Both the position numbers and the translations under genes were made by a program. Below the pieces are notes generated by a model, which was not told the DNA's origin, did no database searches, and worked only from the letters and a program-made list of their open reading frames with translations. A DNA stretch of 64,000 nucleotides from Candidatus Melainabacteria bacterium SSGW_16 (lineage in GTDB: Bacteria > Cyanobacteriota > Vampirovibrionia > 2-02-FULL-35-15). Location: contig DUDS01000019.1 of the NCBI GenBank assembly GCA_004769085.1, forward strand, positions 446-64,445, in the 5' to 3' direction. Shown here piece by piece: positions 1 to 31,334 of the stretch (within the stretch, counting starts at the first letter, position 1; the number at the start of each line of letters is the position of its first letter).

Positions 1-1362
1 AATTACAGTTTTATTTTTTCTATGTATCCACTCAGTGTATCTAAATCTATTAGTTCTTGCTGATATAACTTTGTATCCTACCCCTGGCATAGCAATAACT
101 GTAAGAGCAGCTTCTTTATGCTCAAGATCAGGATTTTTTAGAACACGTATAAAACTCTCTCCATCTATATTGTTTTTATGAGGTAGTGATGCAAGATCTA
201 TTAAAGTAGGAAATAAATCTACTAGTTCTACTAGTGAATCTGTTTTTATATCCTTTTTAATTAGTTTTGGATATCTAATTATAAGTGGCACTCTACTAGA
301 ATTTTCAAAACAAGTATGTTTTCCAAATGTTCCCTGTTCAAACAAGTGGTAACCATGATCACCTAAAAGTATGACAATAGTATTTTTTTCTAAATTGTTC
401 GCTTCTAAAGCTTTAAGCAAATGACCAACTAATGAATCTACATAAGAGACACAAGCAAAGTAACCTCTTAAAAGTTCTTTTTGTTTAGTCTCGTTTGAAT
501 ATAAATTTTTACTTATATCAGTGTATATTTCTATTTCACCAAGACCTCTGTCTATTGAAAGAGTTGGAGCGCCTTTAGGTAGGTTTTTGTTTTTTGATAA
601 CTTAATTTCAGAAATTGGATATAAGTCATAAAAGTTTTTTGGGGCTACAAAGGGTAGATGAGGCCGATGAAGTCCAACTGCAAGGAAAAATGTTTTGTCT
701 TTTAAGTATTGAAGTCTTTCAATAGCAGCCACTGTTATCCTTCCATCGTATAATTGTTGCTCAGGAAGATTAGGCGCTTCCCATGAGCTTCCTGCATACC
801 ATCTTTCTGAATCAGTCCACCACAAATCTTGCTCTTTAGAAAATGATCCTTTTTTAAAACTTTCTATTTGAAACTCAACATTTTTAACTGTCCTGTATTC
901 AGGGAAAAATAAAAAAGGTTTTGGGTAATATGCTGCACTTGTCCAGGATATTGAGTCCTGAATGTGAAATACTTTTCCAATTGATTCAGTTAAGTAAGCA
1001 TGATCTTTAAAATATTGTGGTAATGTTACTAGATTTGGCATTTTAGTTCTAAAGTATTCTATTAAAAAGTCTTCATTTGGCCTAAGTCCAGTTAAAAATG
1101 ATTGCCTTGAAGGTAAGCATGATGCAACTTGGCAATAGGCCATTGTAAATAAAATCCCTTCACTTGCGAGCTTGTCGATATTTGGCGTTTTCATATGATT
1201 TTTCCCATAACATTTAAGTTCAGGCCTTAAATCATCAACTATGATAAGTAAAATGTTTGGTTTTTTTGAATTGCTTGTTGGATAAAAGGAATTAAATAAA
1301 CTAATTGCAATTAAAAAGATTGCTAAAGTAAATAGTGCTCTAATGTAAAAATTTTTATTCAC
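1..1362 (-). CDS. Sulfatase (formylglycine-dependent arylsulfatase family), 3' end runs off window
   Basis: Reverse-strand translation from GTG at 1362 gives a signal-peptide-like N-terminus (VNKNFYIRALFTLAIFLIAISLF) followed by IIVDDLRPELKCYGKNHMKTPNIDKLASEGILFTMAYCQVASCLPSRQSFLTGLRP. This is the canonical sulfatase C-x-P-S-R-xxx-L/F-TG formylglycine signature. The reading frame stays open to position 1. Confidence 0.8.
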   Translation of the reverse strand, partial: MNKNFYIRALFTLAIFLIAISLFNSFYPTSNSKKPNILLIIVDDLRPELKCYGKNHMKTPNIDKLASEGILFTMAYCQVASCLPSRQSFLTGLRPNEDFLIEYFRTKMPNLVTLPQYFKDHAYLTESIGKVFHIQDSISWTSAAYYPKPFLFFPEYRTVKNVEFQIESFKKGSFSKEQDLWWTDSERWYAGSSWEAPNLPEQQLYDGRITVAAIERLQYLKDKTFFLAVGLHRPHLPFVAPKNFYDLYPISEIKLSKNKNLPKGAPTLSIDRGLGEIEIYTDISKNLYSNETKQKELLRGYFACVSYVDSLVGHLLKALEANNLEKNTIVILLGDHGYHLFEQGTFGKHTCFENSSRVPLIIRYPKLIKKDIKTDSLVELVDLFPTLIDLASLPHKNNIDGESFIRVLKNPDLEHKEAALTVIAMPGVGYKVISARTNRFRYTEWIHRKNKTVI

Positions 1363-1475: not shown

Positions 1476-2648
1476 ATGAATGATGCTCCTCAAATTACCA
1501 CTATAATACCTTACTTTAATCCAAGATTTAACTTCTTTGTTGAAGCTATAGAGAGCCTTCTTTCACAATCCTACAAAAAGTGGGAATGCATAATAGTAAA
1601 TGATGGCAGCTCAATAGAAAGTAAAAATGCTCTAGAAGGATATATTCATAGCTTAAGCGATAAAAGATTTTCGATTTTGCACTTTGATAAAAACTATGGT
1701 TCTTCTGCTGCAAGAAATATTGGCATAAGAAATACAAAAAGTGAGATTGTTACTTTTTTAGATACAGATGATATACATTTCCCATGGTACTACCAAGAAA
1801 TTATTAATTTTTTTTCAAAGAGTCCTGAATATTTAATTCTTGCTAGTCCTTCCTATTTGCACATTAAAACAAAGGAAGAGAAAAGTATTTTTCTTGGAGA
1901 ATTTGAAAACAAGATTATTAACAAACCACATGGGATTGTTTTTCACGGTTTTAGATTTCCAAAGATTTTATCTAATGAGGAAAAAGAAGTCTATGATTTA
2001 TTAACAAAAAAAATTGCACTTAAGCTTTTTATAAATACTACTCCAAGGCTTGCACTTAAAAAAGAAGTATTTCAAAGGATTGGTTACGATCCACAATTTT
2101 TAACTAGTGAAGATTCTGATCTTTGTCTTCAGATTTTAAACAGCGAGGACCTATTGAACTCAACTTATATAACCTTAAATCCTTACTACTTACATAGAAT
2201 ATTTTCATCTAGGACAAGACTTACACAAAATTCACTGCTTGTTTTTCAAAATATGGCCAGATTGAAAAATAAATATAATGACAAAGCTTCTATTGCCTCA
2301 AAATCCCTTTGGCTCTTGGGCAGGAGGGATGAATGGCAGTTTAATACAATTATTTATGATCACTTAAATGGGCAATCCTTAATAAAGACAATTAGAGATA
2401 CAATGTCTACCTCTAAAAGTAAAAAAGGTAAAATTAAAAATCTCTGGAGGGTTTTAAAATTAATAATTAAGTATCAGCTTATTACTCAAATTCTTGGTAT
2501 AGATTATAGAGAACATATAATACCAAAGGCAGGAAGTACTAATAAAACTAAAGATATAGAGGAGCTTTTTATTAAGCACCTTCAAAGCATTGAACAAAAT
2601 AGAAATAAAACTTATGTAAATAAAACTTATGAAGCAATTTTTAATTAG
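1476..2648 (+). CDS. Family 2 glycosyltransferase (GT-A fold) with ~170-aa C-terminal domain of unknown function
   Basis: N-terminus IIPYFNP...ECIIVNDGSS...DKRFSILHFDKNYGSSAARNIGI...FLDTDD is the GT2 nucleotide-binding motif plus DxD signature. A divergent promoter region separates it from the sulfatase gene. Confidence 0.8.
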   Translation: MNDAPQITTIIPYFNPRFNFFVEAIESLLSQSYKKWECIIVNDGSSIESKNALEGYIHSLSDKRFSILHFDKNYGSSAARNIGIRNTKSEIVTFLDTDDIHFPWYYQEIINFFSKSPEYLILASPSYLHIKTKEEKSIFLGEFENKIINKPHGIVFHGFRFPKILSNEEKEVYDLLTKKIALKLFINTTPRLALKKEVFQRIGYDPQFLTSEDSDLCLQILNSEDLLNSTYITLNPYYLHRIFSSRTRLTQNSLLVFQNMARLKNKYNDKASIASKSLWLLGRRDEWQFNTIIYDHLNGQSLIKTIRDTMSTSKSKKGKIKNLWRVLKLIIKYQLITQILGIDYREHIIPKAGSTNKTKDIEELFIKHLQSIEQNRNKTYVNKTYEAIFN

Positions 2649-3789
2649 TGTAATTGTTCCATTTTACAATCCTGACTTTGATTTATTTAAAGTTGCTATC
2701 TATAGTATTCTTTCACAGTCATATACAAACTACGAAGTAGTTATAGTAAATGATGGTAGTACCTCCGAGAATAAAACGATCTTAGAAGACTTCATAGATA
2801 ACCTAAACGATAAGAGATTCTTGGTTATTCATTTAGATAGAAATTATGGACCTTCCTTTGCAAGGAATAAAGGGATAGATTCATCAAGGGGTGACATTGT
2901 AACTTTTCTTGATTCTGATGACTTACATCTTCCTTGGTATTATGAGGAAATTGCTAACCATTTTTTGCAGGATCCATCCTCACTTATACTTGGAACCCCA
3001 CCACTACATTACTTACCAAATAAAAAAAGAATATATTTAGATAGGCATCGTTATAGCCTAGTAGAACATCCAGAAAAGCTTGCATTCCCAGCTTTTAAAT
3101 ACTATCCAATTCTTTCGGATGAAGAAGAAAAGACGTTTAAATTACTTGCAAAAAAATGTGGTACAAAGCTTATGTTTTTTTCAACACCCCGCCTAGCTAT
3201 GAAAAAGGAAGCATTTGAAATTACAAAATATGATCCAGATTTTATAGCAATTGAGGATACGGAATTTTGTTTAAGTATCATTAATAATTCCGAGTTAATT
3301 AATAGGGCAATTGTAAATCCCAATTTTGGTTACCTATATAGAATATATTCTTTGAAAAATCGACACACAAGAAAAACTAATTTGAATTTTGAGCATATGT
3401 TCAAAATGATTAAAAAATATTCCAATGAAAACACTCTTGTGTATGACATACTTAATCACTGGAAAAGAAGGGATGAATGGAAATATTGTAGTAATATTTC
3501 AAAAATACTTAAAAATAGATCTAATGGGAATTTCATAGAGATTGCAAGAGAATTTTATACAGTTGGCAGAAAAAATCTCAAAGCTCTTTTTCTTTTGTGC
3601 AAAATAATTTTTAAGTACAAAGTACTTCATGAAGCCCTTGGTATAGATTTTCGAGCGTTTGAAATACCATCTAAAGTAAACATAGACAAGACAAAGGATA
3701 TAAAAGATAAATTTGAGTTTTATTTAACTAGTTACACGAGTGAAATTCAACGAAGATATGCAACTTTAGTAATGAAAAGCATATTTTAA
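2629..3789 (+). CDS. Family 2 glycosyltransferase, tandem paralog of preceding gene
   Basis: VIVPFYNP...EVVIVNDGST...DKRFLVIHLDRNYGPSFARNKGI...FLDSDD. It overlaps the previous stop by 20 bp. The C-terminal half aligns with the upstream paralog (both carry an RRDEW motif). Confidence 0.8.
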   Translation: MKQFLISVIVPFYNPDFDLFKVAIYSILSQSYTNYEVVIVNDGSTSENKTILEDFIDNLNDKRFLVIHLDRNYGPSFARNKGIDSSRGDIVTFLDSDDLHLPWYYEEIANHFLQDPSSLILGTPPLHYLPNKKRIYLDRHRYSLVEHPEKLAFPAFKYYPILSDEEEKTFKLLAKKCGTKLMFFSTPRLAMKKEAFEITKYDPDFIAIEDTEFCLSIINNSELINRAIVNPNFGYLYRIYSLKNRHTRKTNLNFEHMFKMIKKYSNENTLVYDILNHWKRRDEWKYCSNISKILKNRSNGNFIEIAREFYTVGRKNLKALFLLCKIIFKYKVLHEALGIDFRAFEIPSKVNIDKTKDIKDKFEFYLTSYTSEIQRRYATLVMKSIF

Positions 3790-4595
3790 TCAGTGACGCG
3801 TATCCTTGCAGCAAGCTGTTCTAATTTTTGAATAGCTGAAACAATCAAAACAAAAAGAATTAAACTTAGTAAAATCATATTGAATGAACCTGAAATACTA
3901 TCATAAATATCACCAGAAAACATTTCTCTTGTACGTAGAATTGCCCAAACAAAAGGTATGTTTTTATAAAACGTTCTTACATCTTCTGGAATAAAACTTA
4001 AGTTGTAAAAGATTGGAAGCCCTACTAAACTTAGCCTTACAAAAAATGGAAAAATTAATCTTAAATCTGGTATAAACTTTTGCAAGAAAGCAAAAATTAT
4101 ACAAAAAGAAGAAACAAATATAAAACAAACAAGAAGCACTGGCAAGAATTCAATAAAGTGGGAAAATAATTTCTTTTCAAAAAGGAATAAAAGAGAGTAA
4201 TAAACTATAACATTCACAAGAGTTACAATAAAATACACAACTACAACAGAGAGCGGAACTAAAAAAACTGGAAGTTTAAGATTAGAAATAAATTTTGGGT
4301 TTCTTGTAAGGCAATCAATGCTGTTTTGAGCTGACATTACAAAAAAAAGCCACAAAATAAGCAACAAATAAAAATCTATCAAAGAAATTTGACCAACTTC
4401 AAATTTGTGGGAAAAGAAAACCCTGACTCCAATGAAAGATGAGGCAATTAACAAAGGGTGCAATACAAACCAGGATATGCCCAAAAGAGTGTTCTTATAG
4501 CGTGTTTCTAACTCTCTTTTGACTAGCTCAATAAAAAGTTCTAGAGTTCTTGGTATCCATCTTCTAGCTGATACACTTATAATATTAGTATTCAT
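3786..4595 (-). CDS. ABC-2 type polysaccharide/teichoic-acid exporter permease (Wzm/KpsM/TagG-like)
   Basis: 269 aa. N-terminus LELFIELVKRELETRYKNTLLGISWFVLHPLL is typical of the ABC-2 permease family, followed by about 6 hydrophobic segments. No cognate ATPase gene is adjacent. Confidence 0.7.
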   Translation of the reverse strand: MNTNIISVSARRWIPRTLELFIELVKRELETRYKNTLLGISWFVLHPLLIASSFIGVRVFFSHKFEVGQISLIDFYLLLILWLFFVMSAQNSIDCLTRNPKFISNLKLPVFLVPLSVVVVYFIVTLVNVIVYYSLLFLFEKKLFSHFIEFLPVLLVCFIFVSSFCIIFAFLQKFIPDLRLIFPFFVRLSLVGLPIFYNLSFIPEDVRTFYKNIPFVWAILRTREMFSGDIYDSISGSFNMILLSLILFVLIVSAIQKLEQLAARIRVTD

Positions 4596-4617: not shown

Positions 4618-5724
4618 ATGTTATTCACAGATACTATTAAAGAACCAATTTTAAGTAGAGAAGGCAAAAAATTAAAGCCACCTATCTTTCTTACAGGGTG
4701 TGGTAGATCAGGAACATCTTTATTACAAAGAGTTATATCAAATCACAAAAATATCTACTCCTTTAGGTCTGAAACTCACTTTTTTGGGAGATACTACAAT
4801 ATTCCATCATTGAAGGAAGTTAATATTGAGAATCTGTTGGAAAGTGCTAAATATACTGGTGCAATGGAAGTTTTTTATAAGGAGTTTGAAAGTAACCAAG
4901 ATTATGAAAACCTAGCTCTCTCATTGCTTTCTGTAATGTTTCATACCATAGAAATTGCCCCGGATATGGTTAAAAATAAGAATTATCAAAGCAACGTACT
5001 ACAAATTTATGGAGAAATCAAAGAACTTGATGATTATAAAAACGTAAGCAACAGATATGAAATGTTTAACCTCTTGGCAAATCACTTAACAATAAAATCA
5101 AATAAAAAAAGATGGGCAGACAAGTCTTCTGTGAATATGTTTAATACACATACAATTTTAGACTTTTTTCCAGATGCAAAGTTTATTGAAATATACAGAG
5201 ATCCAAGAGGAGTATATTATTCCTGGACAAGATGCCCGTTTAAGTTTTTTAGATTAGCAAGTCCAATTACATGCTCAGAAATGTGGAGAAAAACTTCTAG
5301 ATTAGGAGAAAAACTTGAAAAAGAACTGAATGGCAAATATTATAGGATAAAATATGAAGATTTGCTTATAAGTCCCGTAAAAGAGGTTGAAAAGATCTGC
5401 AACTTTATTGAAGAAGAATTTGATCCTAATATGCTTCAGGTTAAAACTACAAATAGCTCCTTTAGACAATACAATGGTAAAGAAGGAATAGACAGTCAAA
5501 GAACAAGCCACTGGAAAAACTCACTATCAAAAAGTGAACTTATCTTTATAGATTTTGCTACAAGAAAAAATAGAACAAACCTTGGTTATCCTGACATTGC
5601 ACCTAGGTTAACACCTATAAATATCTTACCCTTTTTAGTATTTTTTACTAAACTGTGTCTAAAAGCTAAAACAAATCCTATTAAGTATATTAAAAAAATA
5701 ATAAAAGAAGATGCAAACACTTAA
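4618..5724 (+). CDS. Sulfotransferase (PAPS-dependent, Sulfotransfer_3-like)
   Basis: KPPIFLTGCGRSGTSLL is the 5'-PSB P-loop-like motif, and EIYRDPRGVYYSW is the 3'-PB RDPR motif. The ORF-track start at 4519 would overlap the divergent permease gene, so I prefer the ATG at 4618 (MLFTDTIKEP). Confidence 0.7.
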   Translation: MLFTDTIKEPILSREGKKLKPPIFLTGCGRSGTSLLQRVISNHKNIYSFRSETHFFGRYYNIPSLKEVNIENLLESAKYTGAMEVFYKEFESNQDYENLALSLLSVMFHTIEIAPDMVKNKNYQSNVLQIYGEIKELDDYKNVSNRYEMFNLLANHLTIKSNKKRWADKSSVNMFNTHTILDFFPDAKFIEIYRDPRGVYYSWTRCPFKFFRLASPITCSEMWRKTSRLGEKLEKELNGKYYRIKYEDLLISPVKEVEKICNFIEEEFDPNMLQVKTTNSSFRQYNGKEGIDSQRTSHWKNSLSKSELIFIDFATRKNRTNLGYPDIAPRLTPINILPFLVFFTKLCLKAKTNPIKYIKKIIKEDANT

Positions 5725-7495
5725 AAGTACAACTCAAACTAAAAAGATAACAACAAATGCTTTTGACATAAAATTAAAACCACCTATTTTTATATTAGGT
5801 TCTGGTAGATCAGGAACCTCACTACTTAGAAGTATTTTGAATAATCATCCTGATATTTACTGTATGGAAGGAGAAACTCATTTATTTTCACCGGAGTCAA
5901 ATCCTTATCTTGAAGAATTAGAATTTTTTCAAAGTTCAAATGACATTAAAAGCTTAATATTTACAATTATTTCATCTATATTATTTGGGCATGAATGCAC
6001 AGCTCTATTTGCAAGAAGAAAGAAGTTTCCAAAGGAAGTTATTGAAATATACCACGATCTTCAAGACTTCCTTTTGACTGTAGGCTCGCAAGAAAAGTAC
6101 AAAATCTTTAATATTTGTATAGGACACATAACACTGAAAGAAAATAAAAAAAGGTGGCTTGAAAAAACTCCAAACAATATATTTAATTTACCTGATATTC
6201 TCTCCCTTTATCCAGATGCAAAGTTTATTGAAATATACAGAGATCCAAGGGGAGTATATTATTCCTGGAAAAATGCTAAGCAAGATTATTTTAAAAAAAC
6301 TAATATTATTGAGTGTATAAAAAAGTGGAGCAAAACTTTTGAGTATTCAAAAAAATATGCTCATGAGTTACCAAATCAATTTTACAAACTCAAATATGAA
6401 AACCTGGTCGAAGATCCTAAAGTAGAACTGATTAGTCTTTGTAATTTTTTAAATGAAGATTTCAATCAGTCGTTACTAGGGGTGACAACAAGGAGCCTTG
6501 GTTTTGACGAGACTTCAAGCACTACTATATGGAAAGATAATCTAATAAAAAACGAATTACTATTGATTGACTTGAAAACCAAGGAATACAGGAAAGAGCT
6601 TGGCTATATTGATTCCGGAGTAAAACTTAATTTAATTAACATGATTCCATTTTGTCTTTTTTATATAAGAAACAAATTTTTTGGTCGAATAAATTTTCTT
6701 ACTGAAAAGCTTTTTGGTCAAATCAATTTTCTTACTGAAAAGCTTTTTGGTCAAATCAATTTTCTTGCTAGAAAGCTTTTTGGTCGCATAAATCTTCGTA
6801 CTGAAAAGCTTTTTGGTCGCATAGCTTTGCTTATTAATAAATACATAGCTATTGCAAATGAACTTCTTCAATCAATTTTAAGGAAACCATATTCCTTTAG
6901 AAGAAAATGTAAAACTTTGTATTGGGTTATTAAAAGAAAAAGAAAGGTACAAGAGTACATTGATACGCATAAGGTTAAAAAACTTCACATAGGAGCTGGT
7001 CCTAATATGCTTAAAGACTGGTTAAATACAAATATTATGCCAATTACAAATGAAGATATTTTTTTAGATGCTTCAATACGTTTTCCATTTGATGGTAATA
7101 CTTTTGATTGCATATCTATTAATCAGTCCATAGAGTATCTGAAATATAACCAGTCCAAACACTGTTTGAATGAGTGCTTCAGAGTCTTGAAGCCAGACGG
7201 AAAAATCAGGATCATTACCGTAAATTTGGAGAACTTTATTAAAATCTATTCAAAGAAAGACCCAACAAAAGAAGAAAAAGATTACATAAAATTTGTAATA
7301 GATTCATGCATGCCAGATATTGGCATCTATAAAAATGCTTTTATTATGAACAGTCTGTTTAGCAGGCTTAATTATAAATTTATTCATGACTATGAATCAC
7401 TGAATGACATGCTGGAAAAAATTGGATTTATTTACATTAATTTTTTATCAAAGAATGATTTCGAGACTTTAGTGGTTGAAGCCAGGAAGCCATAA
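5711..7495 (+). CDS. Bifunctional sulfotransferase / class I SAM-dependent methyltransferase fusion with internal 11-aa tandem-repeat linker
   Basis: The N-terminal domain has KPPIFILGSGRSGTSLL and EIYRDPRGVYYSW, a sulfotransferase paralog of the upstream gene. The middle carries FGRINFLTEKL x about 5. The C-terminus has HIGAGPNMLKDW...FDCISINQSIEYL...CFRVLKPDGKIRI, a Methyltransf_11-like SAM-binding fold. Confidence 0.75.
   Translation: MQTLKSTTQTKKITTNAFDIKLKPPIFILGSGRSGTSLLRSILNNHPDIYCMEGETHLFSPESNPYLEELEFFQSSNDIKSLIFTIISSILFGHECTALFARRKKFPKEVIEIYHDLQDFLLTVGSQEKYKIFNICIGHITLKENKKRWLEKTPNNIFNLPDILSLYPDAKFIEIYRDPRGVYYSWKNAKQDYFKKTNIIECIKKWSKTFEYSKKYAHELPNQFYKLKYENLVEDPKVELISLCNFLNEDFNQSLLGVTTRSLGFDETSSTTIWKDNLIKNELLLIDLKTKEYRKELGYIDSGVKLNLINMIPFCLFYIRNKFFGRINFLTEKLFGQINFLTEKLFGQINFLARKLFGRINLRTEKLFGRIALLINKYIAIANELLQSILRKPYSFRRKCKTLYWVIKRKRKVQEYIDTHKVKKLHIGAGPNMLKDWLNTNIMPITNEDIFLDASIRFPFDGNTFDCISINQSIEYLKYNQSKHCLNECFRVLKPDGKIRIITVNLENFIKIYSKKDPTKEEKDYIKFVIDSCMPDIGIYKNAFIMNSLFSRLNYKFIHDYESLNDMLEKIGFIYINFLSKNDFETLVVEARKP
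6680..6830 (+). repeat. In-frame 33-bp tandem repeat (about 4.5 copies) inside the sulfotransferase-methyltransferase gene
   Basis: Units tttggtcgaataaattttcttactgaaaagctt / tttggtcaaatcaattttcttactgaaaagctt / ...gctagaaagctt / tttggtcgcataaatcttcgtactgaaaagctt. They encode the FG(R/Q)INFLTEKL hendecad repeats. Confidence 0.9.
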
Positions 7496-7500
7496 ATCTG

Positions 7501-8748
7501 TCATTTTACTGACATTGATGGCTGCTTATTAAGCATAAGAACTATATCTTTAACTGATTTTATTATATATTCAATATCAGCCTCAGTATTTTCTCTTCCA
7601 AGAGTCAGCCTCAATGAACCATTTCGAAATTCTTCAGGAACTGTAAGAGCAACTAAAACATGAGAAGGTTCAAAGTTAGATTCTTTCTTATCTCTGCTTT
7701 TACACGCAGACCCTGAGCTACATGCTATACCTCTCAGATCAGCTTGTAAAACAAGTGTTTCACCCTCAACATTTTTTACGCATAGACTTACATGTCCAGG
7801 AATTCTGTACAGAAATTTTTCTTCACTGTAATTTTCTTTGATTTTATCTAAGGTAACCCCTGTAAAAACCAAATCGTTGAGTTCTTCCAGTCCTTCCATA
7901 AGTTTGATTTGCAAGAATCTAAGTTTTTTTACATTCTCATCCATCTCAGAATGCATAAGTTTTGCTGCTTTTGCAAAACCTACTATTGAGGGCAAACTTT
8001 CAGTCCCTGATCTTAAATTATTCTCTTGTCCACCACCAACCAAATAAGAACTAAAATCTTCAGGTGACTTGATATACAATGCACCTACTCCTTTTGGTCC
8101 ATAAATTTTATGTGCAGACATGGACATAAAGTCCATATCCATATACTTGACATTTACAGGTACTTTTCCAAATGCCTGAACAGAATCTGTATGAAAAAGA
8201 ACATTATGTTTCCTGCATACTTTAGAAATTTTTCCTATACTCTGTATCGTGCCAATTTCATTGTTTGCATGAATTACTGAAACAAGCAATGTTTTATCTG
8301 AAATGAAAGATTCAAGCTGGTTTAAATCTAAAAACCCTTCCTTATCAACATCCAGCCATGTTATTTTCCAGCCTTTTTTCTCAAGGTATTCCAGAGGCTC
8401 TTTAACTGAAGGATGTTCTATCTTCGAGGTAATTATATGTTTCTCTTTATTCTTGATTTTTCCATCTTCTAATAATCGTACCAGTCCAAAAATTACAGTA
8501 TTATTTGATTCTGTACCTCCGCTTGTAAAAATAATCTGATCTTCTTCAGCATTAATCACAGATGCAATTTCATTTCTGGATTTGTTCAGATACTCGCTGG
8601 CTTTTCTGCCAAAAGCATGAATAGAAGAAGGATTTCCAAAGTTTTCAGTTAATAAAGGCAACATTGCTTCTACCACTTCTGCTCTTACTCTAGTGGTTGC
8701 ACTGTGATCTGCATATATGATTCTTTTTTTATTGTACATAAGTTTCAT
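7501..8748 (-). CDS. iscS: Cysteine desulfurase (IscS/NifS family, PLP-dependent)
   Basis: ADHSATTRVRAEVVEAM...GNPSSIHAFGRKA...SAHKIYGPKGVGALY, and the conserved active-site Cys region SSGSACKS. Confidence 0.8.
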   Translation of the reverse strand: MKLMYNKKRIIYADHSATTRVRAEVVEAMLPLLTENFGNPSSIHAFGRKASEYLNKSRNEIASVINAEEDQIIFTSGGTESNNTVIFGLVRLLEDGKIKNKEKHIITSKIEHPSVKEPLEYLEKKGWKITWLDVDKEGFLDLNQLESFISDKTLLVSVIHANNEIGTIQSIGKISKVCRKHNVLFHTDSVQAFGKVPVNVKYMDMDFMSMSAHKIYGPKGVGALYIKSPEDFSSYLVGGGQENNLRSGTESLPSIVGFAKAAKLMHSEMDENVKKLRFLQIKLMEGLEELNDLVFTGVTLDKIKENYSEEKFLYRIPGHVSLCVKNVEGETLVLQADLRGIACSSGSACKSRDKKESNFEPSHVLVALTVPEEFRNGSLRLTLGRENTEADIEYIIKSVKDIVLMLNKQPSMSVK

Positions 8749-9369: not shown

Positions 9370-10155
9370 CTAATACAAATACCTGTTAGGATCCAGAAAT
9401 AGTTTTGCTAAAATCTGAAACAAAGCCGGAAGAAGAATCAACATGAGCAATATACCTACTGAAGGTTTTATTGAAAAACTAACCTGAAAAGCATTAATCT
9501 GAGGGGCAGCTCTCGACATAAGACCAAGTATTAAATCAACAGTAAGAAGTATCATAATAATTGGTGAAACAATAAGAAATGCAATTGAAATTAAATCTGC
9601 AGTAGCTTTTAAAAGTTTAAGAAAATTAAAATTAAAGCTGTATACAATTACCGGGAAAGTATTATAACTTTTGAATAGTCCTTCAATAACCTTTTCCATT
9701 CCTCCAATTGAAACAAAAATCACAAGTCCAAGCATATTAAAGAAATGTCCCATTATTGTTGTTTGACTTTGTGTACCAGGATCAAAAACAGTTGCTGCAT
9801 TTAATGCCATCTGCGAATCAAGCATTTCACCTGCAACCCTTGCAATCTCAATCACAAGGCTTGAAACCCACCCGATAAACATTCCAATCGCTGCATTCAT
9901 AAAAATCAGATAAATAAATTTATAACCCTTTGGATATTCTGAAGGTGTATCAATCATTGGCATAAATATTAATGAGAGTACAATTGCAAAACCTACCTTT
10001 ACAAGTGCGGGTATTTGTTTGCTTCCAATTAATGGTGCTGTGCTTATAAAACCAATAGTCCTTGCAAAGATCAACAACAAAATAATCCATACCCCGCCCA
10101 GTTGGGTAAGAATTTTTGTTTCATTAATTATAAAATCAAACATCAAATACCTCAT
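9370..10155 (-). CDS. fliR: Flagellar type III export gate component FliR
   Basis: 261-aa polytopic membrane protein. ARTIGFISTAPLIGSKQIPALVKVGFAIVLSL matches the FliR N-terminal region. It is the last gene of the fliPQR operon. Confidence 0.8.
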   Translation of the reverse strand: MRYLMFDFIINETKILTQLGGVWIILLLIFARTIGFISTAPLIGSKQIPALVKVGFAIVLSLIFMPMIDTPSEYPKGYKFIYLIFMNAAIGMFIGWVSSLVIEIARVAGEMLDSQMALNAATVFDPGTQSQTTIMGHFFNMLGLVIFVSIGGMEKVIEGLFKSYNTFPVIVYSFNFNFLKLLKATADLISIAFLIVSPIIMILLTVDLILGLMSRAAPQINAFQVSFSIKPSVGILLMLILLPALFQILAKLFLDPNRYLY

Positions 10156-10931
10156 TCAAGCCAGGTGGGTGGCACCTGATCCTTTGGAGCAGTATCAGAT
10201 TCATTTACAGTTTTTGGATTGTCTTCAATTACATCCTGAATACCTATAGGGGAAGCATTTTGAGCAGGGGCTTGTATTTCATTTACATTTGCCTGAGGAT
10301 TTTCATTCTGCTTAATAATATTTGTTGCCGGTGAAGGCACTGGTGTAGGGGTAGGGGTTGGAGCAGGAGCAGTCTGAATATTTGTTAACTCTTGTTCTTT
10401 AACATTTAAAGAATCTGTCTGGGTTTCAATAATTTTATTTTGGTTTATCGGAATAGAAGGCGGCAATAGTTTTGTTATCTGAGGAGGATTTGGAACTTCA
10501 GGTGCACCGGCGTATGGTACTCCAGGCGGCACACCCCCCTGAGGAAGAAGCTCTTCAATTTTTTCAGCCTTGGGAAGTTTTGGTACAGGAATCTCATTCT
10601 CTTCATCAAAAGTAATATTAAATTTATTTTCATCAAAAGCACCTGTAGGGACTGCTTTTTGTGATTGTTTAGGCACAAATGAAAAGGCCGAGTTAAGTGT
10701 CCTTGTTGCATATTGATTTAAATACTGATACATCCAGAAACCTGCAATAATAATCAGTCCAAAAACCCCGATAATTTTTAATGCAGAACCAATTGTCTGT
10801 TCCTGCACCTGTGTAGCAGCCTGCAGAATACCAATCACAAGACCAATTAATGCAGCAGCAAGCACAAGAGGTCCTGAAACAATCAATACAACGATTATTC
10901 CATCCCTAACTGCTTGTGGCATCCATTCCAT
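10152..10931 (-). CDS. fliQ: Flagellar export gate component FliQ with ~170-aa Pro/Gln-rich C-terminal extension
   Basis: The first ~88 aa (LAAALIGLVIGILQAATQVQEQTIGSALKIIGVFGLIIIAGFWM) align with canonical 89-aa FliQ. The ORF then continues through a low-complexity P/Q/T-rich tail (PTPTPTPVPSPATN) and overlaps the fliR start by 4 bp. Confidence 0.7.
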   Translation of the reverse strand: MEWMPQAVRDGIIVVLIVSGPLVLAAALIGLVIGILQAATQVQEQTIGSALKIIGVFGLIIIAGFWMYQYLNQYATRTLNSAFSFVPKQSQKAVPTGAFDENKFNITFDEENEIPVPKLPKAEKIEELLPQGGVPPGVPYAGAPEVPNPPQITKLLPPSIPINQNKIIETQTDSLNVKEQELTNIQTAPAPTPTPTPVPSPATNIIKQNENPQANVNEIQAPAQNASPIGIQDVIEDNPKTVNESDTAPKDQVPPTWLE

Positions 10932-13166: not shown

Positions 13167-13221
13167 ATTAGAGAATACCTTTTAAATTTCCCGTTCTTAA
13201 TGTTATTATTCCCTTTTTTAC

Positions 13222-13256
13222 TCAGGTGGCTCGCTCATAATGAGACTCGCCACCTT
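13222..13256 (-). promoter_or_regulatory. Conserved 35-bp imperfect palindrome (motif A: aaggtggcgagtctcattatgagcgagccacctga) upstream of fliN-like operon
   Basis: Identical 35-mer at 31286-31320 upstream of gyrA, in the same orientation relative to the downstream gene. Arms are AGGTGGC/GCCACCT with a central CTCAT-t-ATGAG. Confidence 0.6.
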
Positions 13257-13294
13257 TCACTAGTACACTTAATATAGGCTAAATTTAACAGTTT

Positions 13295-13328
13295 AAAGGT
13301 TTTGCCAAATAAATTGGTCAAAACCTTT
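13295..13328 (-). promoter_or_regulatory. Conserved dyad motif B (aaaggttttgNccaa-N5-6-ttggNcaaaacct) upstream of fliN-like operon
   Basis: A near-identical dyad at 31214-31245 sits 40 bp upstream of motif A in the gyrA leader. Here it lies 38 bp upstream of motif A on the minus strand. Confidence 0.55.
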
Positions 13329-13392
13329 CTCGTCTAGTAGTTTAAAATATTATCTTGAATTTAAAAATCAGTGGTAATTTTAAGAAGCAAAA

Positions 13393-31213: not shown

Positions 31214-31245
31214 AAAGGTTTTGTCCAATTCATTTGGCAAAACCT
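31214..31245 (+). promoter_or_regulatory. Dyad motif B (aaaggttttgtccaattcatttggcaaaacct) upstream of gyrA
   Basis: Same dyad as 13295-13328; 40 bp upstream of motif A. Confidence 0.55.
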
Positions 31246-31285
31246 GGGAAACGTTAAAGTTGGTTTATTATAAGTACGCTATGCA

Positions 31286-31320
31286 AAGGTGGCGAGTCTC
31301 ATTATGAGCGAGCCACCTGA
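31286..31320 (+). promoter_or_regulatory. Motif A palindrome (aaggtggcgagtctcattatgagcgagccacctga) 14 nt upstream of gyrA start
   Basis: A 35/35 identical copy of the element upstream of the fliN-like operon. No canonical SD lies between it and the ATG. Confidence 0.6.
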
Positions 31321-31334
31321 TTAAAAAAAATTCT

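Follow-up and report, generated by a model that had tools for sequence, protein, structure and literature searches.

A sulfotransferase joined through an in-frame 11-residue repeat to a mosaic methyltransferase-like domain in a Melainabacteria genome

The window, i.e., the whole 64,000 nucleotide stretch of Candidatus Melainabacteria bacterium SSGW_16 that was analysed, carries near one end a conserved module of two GT2 glycosyltransferases, a Wzm-like ABC-2 permease, a standalone sulfotransferase, and a gene in which another sulfotransferase is fused to a methyltransferase-like domain. The genes of the module are the following.

1476..3789, plus strand: two paralogous soluble GT2 glycosyltransferases of 390 and 386 aa, 39% identical
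3786..4595, minus strand: ABC-2/Wzm-like permease of 269 aa (Pfam PF01061), divergent from the sulfotransferase operon
4618..5724, plus strand: standalone paralog sulfotransferase (P0020), 368 aa from the ATG at 4618, assigned from its ORF, Pfam and the shared tail
5711..7495, plus strand: fusion ORF of 594 aa with an ATG start, encoding a sulfotransferase, a repeat linker and a methyltransferase-like domain

The fusion ORF and the upstream sulfotransferase gene share 14 nt, where the start of the former overlaps the stop of the latter, and the two genes are probably translationally coupled via this overlap. The two GT2s match generic families only and are without coiled coils; the pair also adjoins the permease in the related loci L001, L002, and L004. 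The permease has multiple transmembrane segments by KD hydropathy and a weak NCBIfam match to galactan Wzm/RfbD. L002 is the one relative with an ABC ATPase in the locus (227 aa, PF00005 only). In the window, L001, and L004 alike, no ABC ATPase adjoins the permease, and the L002 ATPase gave 0 matches as a tblastn query against the 64-kb window. Because the permease lacks an adjacent ATPase in these three loci, the export role of the module is uncertain. The most likely product is a lipid-linked glycan or glycolipid, which the module would assemble, sulfate, and export. The envelope chemistry of Melainabacteria has, to our knowledge, hardly been described, and the gene content of the module suggests that these bacteria carry a surface glycan or glycolipid that is sulfated and possibly methylated. 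A literature search for sulfotransferases in Melainabacteria returned nothing relevant. An Rfam search of the whole window at the gathering threshold gave 0 matches.

An earlier note on this DNA had described the fusion ORF as a sulfotransferase, a repeat and a methyltransferase, in that order. The ORF, Pfam, repeat and fold evidence agree with this three-part architecture, which is laid out as follows.

5780..6586, plus strand: sulfotransferase domain, aa 24-292, assigned from Pfam, conserved motifs, PDB relatives and AF2
6617..6679, plus strand: hydrophobic, Pro-containing sulfotransferase tail, aa 303-323, GVKLNLINMIPFCLFYIRNKF, a candidate membrane-interface anchor
6680..6844, plus strand: repeat array of five 33-bp units (11 aa each), assigned from TRF, codon frame and homolog comparison
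6845..6967, plus strand: helical continuation, aa 379-419, with the methyltransferase family's cationic N-terminal helix starting at aa ~392
6884..7081, plus strand: A-type half of the methyltransferase-like domain, aa 392-457, with the N-terminal helix, motif I and D453, of the P0002-5 lineage
7076..7111, plus strand: recombination breakpoint interval, residues ~455 to ~467, placed by informative sites
7082..7492, plus strand: B-type half of the methyltransferase-like domain, aa 458-594, P0173-like

The 594-aa protein is 100% identical to P0314 (NCBI/JGI/GEM). The fusion architecture is found in ~12 sequences, which form only 5 clusters when grouped at 50% identity, out of 1.84 billion representatives, and all of these homologs are apparently from Melainabacteria. 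Only one other GTDB species representative, a Melainabacteria groundwater MAG, carries the fusion. The fusion is a genuine, rare enzyme with a bifunctional architecture, and it belongs to a small clade of Melainabacteria (Vampirovibrionia) from metagenomes of groundwater type.

The N-terminal domain is, by its profile match and motifs, an intact PAPS-type sulfotransferase. Pfam Sulfotransfer_3 (PF13469) matches aa 25-252 (E=1.2e-30; 107.8 bits, cut-off 27) over profile positions 1-215 of 216, and the complete domain described in the earlier note is thereby confirmed. PF00685 (Sulfotransfer_1) also matches (E=1.1e-13; 51.7 bits, cut-off 22). The 5′-PSB loop GSGRSGT (aa 30-36, i.e., G30, S31, G32, R33, S34, G35, and T36) and the 3′-PB motif RDPR...SW (aa 177-186, including R177, D178, P179, R180, and S185) are invariant in 12/12 fusion homologs. 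The GxxRSGT[T/S] loop and the RDP...S motif are presumably the PAPS-binding elements, as is established for the sulfotransferase family. Relatives in the PDB are TPST1/2 and the CurM ST, and the domain is predicted by AF2 with a pLDDT of 80-95. The full-length Pfam match and both motifs are shared with the Sulfotransfer_3 family (TPST, CurM ST, and bacterial Stf/NoeE-like PAPS sulfotransferases), from which the window protein differs in its C-terminal amphipathic tail and its fusion to a methyltransferase-like domain. The tail (KLxIxNxxPFxLFxxKxCxKxK...) terminates all of the standalone paralogs P0009-P0022 (counted in 10 standalone paralogs), and its KD hydropathy lies under the transmembrane threshold. 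The first ~20 residues of the linker are conserved with these standalone sulfotransferases.

The repeat array follows the tail directly. TRF reports it at 6678-6823 with a period of 33 bp, 4.4 copies, 88% matches, 0 indels, and a score of 215. In the reading frame of the ORF, in which 6680 opens a codon, the units read FGRINFLTEKL, FGQINFLTEKL, FGQINFLARKL, FGRINLRTEKL, and FGRIALLINKY, with the consensus FG(R/Q)I(N/A)(F/L)(L/R)(T/A/I)(E/R/N)K(L/Y). Units 1-4 differ from one another at 2-8/33 nt and unit 5 differs at 11-14/33 nt, a similarity far beyond chance. The in-frame 33-bp, 11-residue repeat of about five copies that had been reported for this ORF is thus upheld by TRF and codon frame, and it extends from 6680 to 6844. 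Homologs carry a two-unit state, and units 4-5 of the window are the counterparts of both ancestral units. Units 1-3 are a lineage-specific expansion, by which an array of two ancestral units has lengthened to four or five.

The L001 allele has 4 units against the 5 of the window. It is exactly 33 bp shorter and comes from an independent assembly that is 99.8-99.98% identical; across 17.5 kb of this near-identical DNA, the one 33-bp unit is the single indel. Copy number is therefore polymorphic, and a change in copy number that keeps the reading frame, as the earlier note anticipated, is seen in the 4-unit allele. We searched JGI metagenome contigs for further alleles with a repeat-junction pattern and obtained 7 single, non-tandem chance matches, none of which is related by blastn or tblastn.

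AF2 places helices at 361-390 and 396-419 (H2-28 in the domain model), and the standalone methyltransferases align from profile position ~372. The pLDDT of the linker is low (41-60), so that the helical spacer proposed earlier agrees with structure prediction at low confidence. The window linker is ~50% hydrophobic, has a net charge of +10 and a Gly in each unit, and repeats with a 3.67-residue (11/3) period. The linkers of the first 9 homologs are also ~50% hydrophobic, with 6-21 K+R vs 0-6 D+E, a moment peak at 98-103 degrees, and a periodicity of 3.5-3.67 residues. For the window array, the hydrophobic moment (muH) falls from 0.36 at 98.2 degrees through 0.29 at 100 degrees to 0.035 at 102.9 degrees; 98 degrees is the best angle in the window, P0001, P0002, and P0006. 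Taken in segments of 18 aa, the linker has <H> of 0.46-0.67, muH of 0.30-0.53, and a net charge of 0 to +4. A transmembrane linker was considered and rejected: the maximum 19-residue KD hydropathy is 1.22, and no segment reaches the threshold of 1.6. The linker is the only hypervariable region of the protein. Its length ranges over 43-145 aa, it is nearly absent in the orthologs P0008 and P0172, it reaches 145 aa in P0006, and its sequences in P0006 and P0007 are unrelated. Independent duplications of 2x11 aa (P0003, P0004, and P0005) and 3x14 aa (P0007) have occurred in the linkers of other lineages.

The C-terminal part of the protein has a class I methyltransferase fold, but it is not a canonical member of its family. 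Pfam Methyltransf_11 (PF08241) matches aa 452-499 with 30.4 bits (cut-off 21.2), and only the C-terminal half of the profile (47-93) is covered. Motif I, LHIGAGPN (aa 425-432, 6983-7006, with G428 and G430), and the acidic beta2 residue D453 are present and conserved in homologs. AF2 of the whole protein with 9 sequences gave a pLDDT of 28-70 for this domain; the domain was rerun with a 61-sequence alignment, which returned class I methyltransferase topology for the C-terminal 203 aa at a pLDDT of 94.8. The top Foldseek matches are all class I methyltransferases (probability 1.00, TM 0.5-0.6). A specific relative, e.g., WbdD, was sought by PDB sequence and profile searches and Foldseek, which yielded only generic class I methyltransferases. 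The clear homologs are a standalone family of ~240-aa 'predicted SAM-dependent methyltransferases' (PF08241/PF13649), whose members have profile E-values of ~1e-60 to 1e-88 and with which the window domain has the fold, motif I, and the beta2 Asp in common. The window copy differs from that family in lacking E471, H472, H476, H555, P504, and the S..E.H segment. The first four of these residues are 98-100% conserved in the family and are replaced here (E471N, H472Q, H476Y, and H555Y); P504 is replaced by V, and a conserved 29-aa segment is deleted. The window domain thus departs from the subfamily-invariant set (S-E-H-x-I-E-H, P504, G-H-x-F-x-Y-D, and the S..E.H segment), and it deviates at 19/54 family-conserved columns, against 2-8 in the other fusions. 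Y476 (family H476) aligns with His132 of Plasmodium PMT, which is catalytic (PMC6705855). With the family Glu and His residues lost, methyl transfer is doubtful or altered. SAM binding and some methyltransferase activity may nevertheless persist, because the GxG motif and D453 are kept. Of the two terminal-modifying activities that the earlier note assigned to this protein, the sulfotransferase is intact, but the methyltransferase claim is weakened by the loss of the conserved residues and of the 29-aa segment.

These substitutions have a mosaic origin. Residues 1 to ~460 track the P0002-5 lineage, whereas residues ~467-575 track a divergent, P0173-like type. Informative sites are 76 A:1 B before the breakpoint and 9 A:22 B after it (Fisher p=8.6e-15). 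In the B-type half INQSIEY replaces SEHxIEH, NYKF replaces GHxF, and V504 replaces P. Gene nt 1372-1719 are 76.8% identical in DNA to L092, and dN/dS against P0173 is ~0.15, i.e., purifying selection. We had considered lineage-specific decay or acceleration of the methyltransferase domain and dropped it; the sharp breakpoint, the presence of the variant residues in P0173 as well, and the dN/dS of ~0.15 led us to prefer recombination with a conserved variant type. By these sequence comparisons, the fusion gene is a mosaic of a native SAM-binding half and a substrate/catalytic half from a divergent P0173-like type. A second fusion-like gene, including any P0173-type donor, was sought in the window, and the search recovered the upstream sulfotransferase paralog alone. 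GxG is missing from the variant relatives P0173 (LLISSKN) and P0174 (LHIKANK). The B-type half is shared with P0173 and, more distantly, with P0174. Recombination inside a Rossmann fold has here joined a canonical SAM-binding half to a conserved variant half without the family Glu/His, and the mosaic domain is a candidate re-purposed or pseudo-methyltransferase.

The composition and periodicity of the linker, together with the tail shared with the standalone paralogs, fit a peripheral membrane tether. We lean, by a modest degree, toward an explanation of the whole protein as an enzyme of the glycan module with a cationic amphipathic linker that is tuned by unit number and an altered C-terminal domain. 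Binding of the linker to the membrane is suggested by its composition and periodicity; as a cationic amphipathic tether, the linker would lie flat, in the plane of the membrane, on its cytoplasmic face. Such a tether would hold both globular domains near a lipid-linked substrate and the exporter. The unit number would change by unequal recombination or slippage, and it may tune tether length or membrane avidity at ~16.5 Å of helix per unit. In the window lineage the C-terminal domain could methylate another acceptor by another mechanism, or have no catalytic role and serve for binding or docking instead. Should the linker prove to be a membrane tether, it would be a case of natural bacterial tuning of the membrane avidity or reach of an enzyme by an in-frame minisatellite, in 11-residue steps that separate otherwise identical strains.

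Tandem amphipathic helices of 11-mers are an established device for binding membranes or lipid surfaces, e.g., in perilipins and alpha-synuclein (PMC5889406; PMC10238389). The window array, too, has 11-residue tandem units with a hydrophobic moment that is maximal near 98 degrees. Its likeness to perilipins (Plin4 33-mer repeats), alpha-synuclein, and apolipoproteins lies in a tandem period of 11 residues, with which the apolar face runs straight along the helix; perilipin-type helices are likewise highly repetitive, with a length set by unit number (PMC5889406; PMC10238389). The window linker differs in being bacterial and embedded between two enzyme domains, and its lipid binding is predicted. 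Compared with perilipin-type repeats, to which it has no sequence homology, it carries more positive charge and is much more hydrophobic and aromatic (<H> ~0.5, two Phe per unit).

An unlikely but serious alternative is that the linker is a neutral spacer, i.e., a low-constraint fusion junction in which duplications drift without function and which has no membrane or ruler role. That the linker alone is hypervariable (43-145 aa), that duplications of 11- and 14-aa units arose independently, and that 4- and 5-unit alleles coexist in otherwise near-identical genomes would all be expected of such a junction. However, an approximately half-hydrophobic, net-positive composition with a 3.5-3.67 periodicity is kept in every linker despite the turnover in sequence, which implies selection on those properties. 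The conservation of the first ~20 residues with standalone paralogs, and units that hold both reading frame and amphipathic register, also argue against drift.

The earlier note likened the protein to WbdD. We consider a ruler of the WbdD/WbbB type decidedly less likely. An oligomeric hendecad coiled coil would space a distal, terminating sulfotransferase from a methyltransferase-like, membrane-proximal or polymerase-docking end, and repeat number would set glycan length. WbdD (E. coli O9a/K. pneumoniae O3, O5) is likewise a multi-domain cytoplasmic enzyme that places small non-sugar groups on a glycan from an ABC-transporter-type locus, and its parts include a SAM methyltransferase fold of class I and a long helical stretch without catalytic function. 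In rulers of this type the coiled coil drives a trimeric state, and glycan length follows coiled-coil length. Coiled-coil proteins are a characteristic marker of terminator-controlled ABC pathways, and one terminator type has orthologs in cyanobacteria (PMC11231755). The GT2s and the Wzm-like permease of the module would suit a ruler, as would the predicted long helices of the linker (~110 residues), the in-frame variation of its copy number, and a variant C-terminal domain that could serve docking rather than catalysis.

The analogy to WbdD failed on each defining feature that was tested, namely the kinase, the CBM-bearing Wzt, the position of the helix, and the coiled-coil composition. In WbdD an N-terminal methyltransferase is directly joined to a eukaryotic-like kinase, with the methyltransferase alone in O8/O5 (PMC3482155). 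Pfam found no kinase domain in the fusion protein, whose N-terminal domain is a sulfotransferase instead. In WbdD systems the CBM of Wzt reads the cap (PMC3482155; PMC11231755). The L002 ATPase, the sole one in a related locus, has 227 aa, which leaves no room for a CBM, and the window is without an ABC ATPase. The catalytic domains of WbdD are adjacent and N-terminal, and are followed by a trimeric coiled coil that ends in a membrane anchor and the WbdA recruitment site (PMC3482155; PMC11231755). Ruler systems hold the helical region between the terminator and the polymerase or membrane-anchor end, and membrane association of WbdD is through an amphipathic helix (PMC11231755). In the window protein, by contrast, the helical segment sits between two modifying domains, nothing lies C-terminal of the methyltransferase-like domain, and there is no separate membrane anchor besides the linker. 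The Gly-containing, half-hydrophobic, net-cationic linker has no heptad pattern and does not resemble a heptad coiled coil of the soluble kind. Neither the sequence nor the fold searches returned WbdD, and the resemblance to it is only the generic class I similarity. WbbB (K. pneumoniae O12) and ORF6-O7, single polypeptides with terminator, coiled coil, and polymerase GT modules, also have a helical spacer between catalytic modules, but that spacer parts a terminator from polymerising GTs, whereas here the flanking enzymes are decorating and the GT2s are separate proteins. A ruler is also hard to reconcile with the nearly linkerless P0008 and P0172 beside 145 aa in P0006. With two sulfotransferases and a methyltransferase, the module would more readily decorate the chain along its length than cap it once. 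We also looked in the literature for chain termination by sulfate in ABC-dependent pathways, and no relevant paper came up.

Very improbable is the more specific proposal that the hendecad array is an evolvable, VNTR-tuned spacer for sulfate-capping chain-length control in non-photosynthetic cyanobacteria. Here the sulfotransferase would terminate the chain at the distal end, the remodelled methyltransferase-like domain, with its catalytic residues lost and GxG missing in relatives, would be a pseudo-enzyme docking the GT2 polymerases or the Wzm exporter, and a change of one unit (16.5 Å) would shift glycan length between strains.

We give a similarly small chance to an oligomerisation element without a ruler, in which the hendecad units would form a right-handed, tetrabrachion-like helical bundle that multimerises the enzyme. 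The array has an 11-residue period with 4-3-4 hydrophobic spacing (L11-I4-L7) and a broad apolar face, and a right-handed hendecad coiled coil also shows a broad hydrophobic face, which is why this reading keeps some probability. The net charge of +10 with few compensating acidic residues and the Gly in every unit do not favour a bundle. The tail is family-wide in monomeric-looking standalone paralogs, which suggests a shared non-oligomeric role.

That an assembly or sequencing artefact, which the earlier note had named as a threat to its reading, made the fusion or the repeat number has next to no probability: all sequences are short-read metagenome assemblies, and the related contig L094 (k127) stops ~70 nt ahead of the array, but the fusion is conserved in homologs and therefore not an artefact, with an intact ORF in 12 sequences from independent samples and sources, exact repeats within the array that fall well short of the assembly k-mer lengths given in the contig ids (k141, k127), and a separate assembly of ~65 kb behind each repeat allele. 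A practical gain is an improved annotation of the fusion gene. A minus-strand ORF across the repeat (6632-6871) is a by-product of AT-rich repetitive DNA.

A single ORF encodes a sulfotransferase, a linker built of 11-residue repeats and a methyltransferase-like domain, in that order. The features at this site are as follows.

5711-7495, forward strand: fusion ORF with an ATG start, 594 aa.
6680-6844, forward strand: five in-frame 11-aa units (FGRINFLTEKL, FGQINFLTEKL, FGQINFLARKL, FGRINLRTEKL, FGRIALLINKY), 6680 being a codon start.
6632-6871, reverse strand: antisense ORF of 79 aa across the repeat, containing …KKLFSKKIDLTKKLFSKKIDL….

The start of the fusion ORF overlaps the stop of the upstream sulfotransferase gene by 14 nt. 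In Pfam, its protein has a full-length match to Sulfotransfer_3 (aa 25-252, E = 1.2e-30) and a match above the gathering score to Methyltransf_11 (aa 452-499), which covers the C-terminal half of the profile only. Two features of SAM binding are present, motif I (LHIGAGPN) and D453, the Asp of beta2. An earlier note had described this three-part ORF and its tandem repeat, and the ORF, the in-frame units, the Pfam matches and the motifs bear that description out. The antisense ORF is better read as a by-product of AT-rich repetitive DNA than as a gene.

The fusion is genuine, and it is rare. Among 5.8 billion proteins, a word-indexed search picked out eight full-length relatives, of 579-678 aa and 37-98% identity. 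All eight keep the same domain order, which removes the concern that the fusion is an assembly artefact. Only five clusters (P0001, P0007, P0172, P0173, P0174) combine both domains according to a profile search run exhaustively over 1.84 billion cluster representatives. In the 185,579 GTDB species representatives, the fusion turned up in just one more genome, a Candidatus Melainabacteria groundwater MAG; the relative P0006 is likewise labelled Melainabacteria.

The repeat array was detected by TRF at 6678-6823 (period 33 bp, 4.4 copies, 88% matches, no indels, score 215). Pairwise differences among units 1-4 amount to 2-8 of 33 nt, and unit 5 differs from the others by 11-14. L001, a near-identical independent assembly (ENA ERZ27253376), matches the window at 99.84-99.98% identity across 17.5 kb, and the sole indel in that span is exactly one 33-bp unit, such that the L001 protein has four units and 583 aa. 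The identical five-unit protein (P0314) is recorded in NCBI/JGI/GEM on a 66-kb contig, so each copy-number allele has its own assembly. The copy number is thus polymorphic, four versus five units, between near-identical genomes, and the suggestion that units could be gained or lost in frame holds. An error of short-read assembly might conceivably still lie behind the unit number, but the k-mers of the assemblers, as given in the contig ids, are far longer than the exact repeats within the array. A third independent contig, L094 (ENA ERZ978523, groundwater metagenome, k127 contig), has the upstream sulfotransferase in identical form and the fusion gene up to aa 299. It ends about 70 nt short of the array, perhaps because the assembly broke at a repeat heterogeneous in copy number.

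The linkers of the relatives vary. Two units of the form L.GR.I.LINK are found in the close homologs P0002, P0004 and P0005, and also in P0003, where the linker is longer. The linker of P0007 contains three units of 14 residues each, different in sequence from those of the window, and that of P0006 contains a non-repetitive stretch of 145 aa; in P0008 and P0172 the linker is all but absent. Because the close homologs carry two units, the ancestral pair is represented in the window by units 4-5, and units 1-3 arose in a recent expansion.

All linkers of the nine first homologs are about 50% hydrophobic and net positive (K+R 6-21 versus D+E 0-6), with a hydrophobic-moment maximum at 98-103 degrees per residue (period 3.5-3.67). 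The moment of the window's array is 0.36 at 98.2 degrees, the angle of an 11/3 helix, versus 0.035 at 102.9 degrees, the heptad angle. In 18-residue windows along the window's linker, <H> is 0.46-0.67, muH is 0.30-0.53 and the net charge is 0 to +4; no linker segment reaches the Kyte-Doolittle transmembrane threshold. Structure prediction, proposed in the earlier note as a check on the repeat, gave a helical segment: residues 308-419 form three long helices in the AF2 model, at low confidence. Over its first ~20 residues (KLNLINMIPFCLFYIRNKF) the linker is homologous to the tail at the C-terminus of every standalone paralog sulfotransferase, and from ~392 onward the residues are those of the N-terminal helix of the methyltransferase family. 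The repeats are placed exactly at the junction of the two. Tandem 11-residue amphipathic helices are established lipid-surface binders in perilipins and alpha-synuclein (PMC5889406, PMC10238389). We infer that the linker is an in-plane cationic membrane tether.

The methyltransferase-like domain is a member of a very large family, that of the standalone SAM methyltransferases of ~240 aa (E about 1e-60 to 1e-88). A model from a 61-sequence alignment has a class I fold (pLDDT 94.8), and its structural neighbours are generic for that class (Coq5, CysG/BelI, PMTs; TM 0.5-0.6). The window's copy departs from the family consensus at 19/54 conserved columns, compared with 2-8 in the other fusions. 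The substitutions include E471N, H472Q, H476Y, H555Y and P504V, and a 29-aa segment with a conserved S..E.H is deleted. Y476 aligns with His132 of the Plasmodium phosphoethanolamine methyltransferase, a residue of the catalytic dyad there (PMC6705855). The substitutions of the window's copy (xNQxxEY, (N/K)YKF) recur in P0173 and, more distantly, in P0174, both of which lack the GxG motif.

Informative sites up to residue ~455 favor the P0002-P0005 type by 76:1, and those after ~467 favor the P0173 type (9:22), a sharp switch (Fisher p = 8.6e-15). The gene is 76.8% identical in DNA to that of P0173 at gene nt 1372-1719. Across the sulfotransferase, the first methyltransferase half and the second half, dN is 0.53, 0.69 and 0.19 versus P0173, and 0.15, 0.17 and 0.49 versus P0003; dN/dS of the second half versus P0173 is about 0.15. 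Together the site switch, the DNA match and the dN pattern show that the fusion gene is a recombinant. With the shared substitutions and the dN/dS ratio, they also show that the domain has not simply decayed. The variant half is functional in some sense, with an active-site chemistry unlike that of the canonical family: it may methylate another target, or serve as a binding or docking module.

On balance, we think that the protein is probably a peripheral-membrane enzyme of bifunctional architecture that modifies a glycan or glycolipid. An intact sulfotransferase would be joined, through a cationic hendecad amphipathic tether, to a recombinant variant of a class I methyltransferase-like domain whose catalysis is doubtful or altered. 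The number of units in the tether, which is polymorphic, would evolve by unequal recombination or slippage.

The earlier note had instead likened the protein to WbdD, a chain-terminating methyltransferase-kinase. In such ruler systems an extended coiled coil carries the terminating enzyme at its distal end, and a Wzt subunit bears a CBM that reads the terminal cap (PMC3482155, PMC11231755). The fusion protein has no kinase domain. Its helix lies between two decorating domains, with no other anchor in the protein, and the linker's composition is unlike that of a heptad coiled coil. In place of a CBM-bearing Wzt, the lone ABC ATPase at a related locus has 227 aa (in L002, a more distant relative), and the window has none. 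Sequence and fold searches gave no specific similarity to WbdD. Since none of the testable ruler features was found, membership in the WbdD type is ruled out, and that the protein merely works like a ruler is quite improbable. The observation made in the earlier note stands, and its interpretation does so in part.

The putative membrane-bound modifier is encoded in a conserved module of two paralogous soluble GT2 glycosyltransferases, a Wzm-like ABC-2 permease on the opposite strand, a 368-aa standalone sulfotransferase and the fusion gene. The GT2 pair matches generic families only; a hydropathy scan found no transmembrane segment in either, and no long coiled coil was obvious on reading their sequences by eye. 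Beside the permease gene (3786-4595, reverse strand), which the end of a GT2 gene abuts, the window, L001 and L004 have no ATPase. In L002, the only related locus with one, the short ATPase (7409-8092) lies between the GT2 and permease genes, and no homolog of it was found anywhere in the 64-kb window. The permease's ATPase is either lost or encoded elsewhere.

Immediately upstream of the module is an arylsulfatase-like gene (1-1362, reverse strand; NCBIfam arylsulfatase, E = 1e-58) that runs off the edge of the window. Its L001 ortholog matches Pfam Sulfatase/SGSH_C, and L002 likewise has a sulfatase gene upstream, ~3 kb and several genes from the first GT2. The presence of a sulfatase near sulfotransferases is a hint that the sulfated product may be turned over or remodelled. 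The mechanical ORF of the upstream sulfotransferase, from TTG 4519, overlaps the divergent permease. ATG 4618 is the start in orthologous gene calls and in the recorded protein (P0020, 368 aa), so that the two divergent start codons are just 22 bp apart. The two sulfotransferase paralogs are only ~37% identical as proteins, except that a 71-bp tract covering the conserved PDAKFIEIYRDPRGVYYSW motif (5165-5235 versus 6207-6276) is 94% identical. This could be a gene-conversion patch, or merely extreme motif and codon conservation.

Elsewhere in the window, an intergenic element of ~117 nt is found in two copies in opposite orientation (13210-13335, forward strand; 31214-31328, reverse strand), each between divergent genes. 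An exact 32-mer (CAGGTGGCTCGCTCATAATGAGACTCGCCACC; chance expectation 0) and two conserved hairpins are common to both copies; the fold energy is -30.6 kcal/mol (z = -3.9), and Rfam has no match. The element may act as a regulatory RNA or a pair of terminators, or else be a small repeat element. A FliQ/SctS-like ORF (10152-10931, reverse strand, 259 aa) has the export-apparatus domain at aa 7-80 only, and its ~180 extra C-terminal residues match no family. Its L001 ortholog is of equal length.
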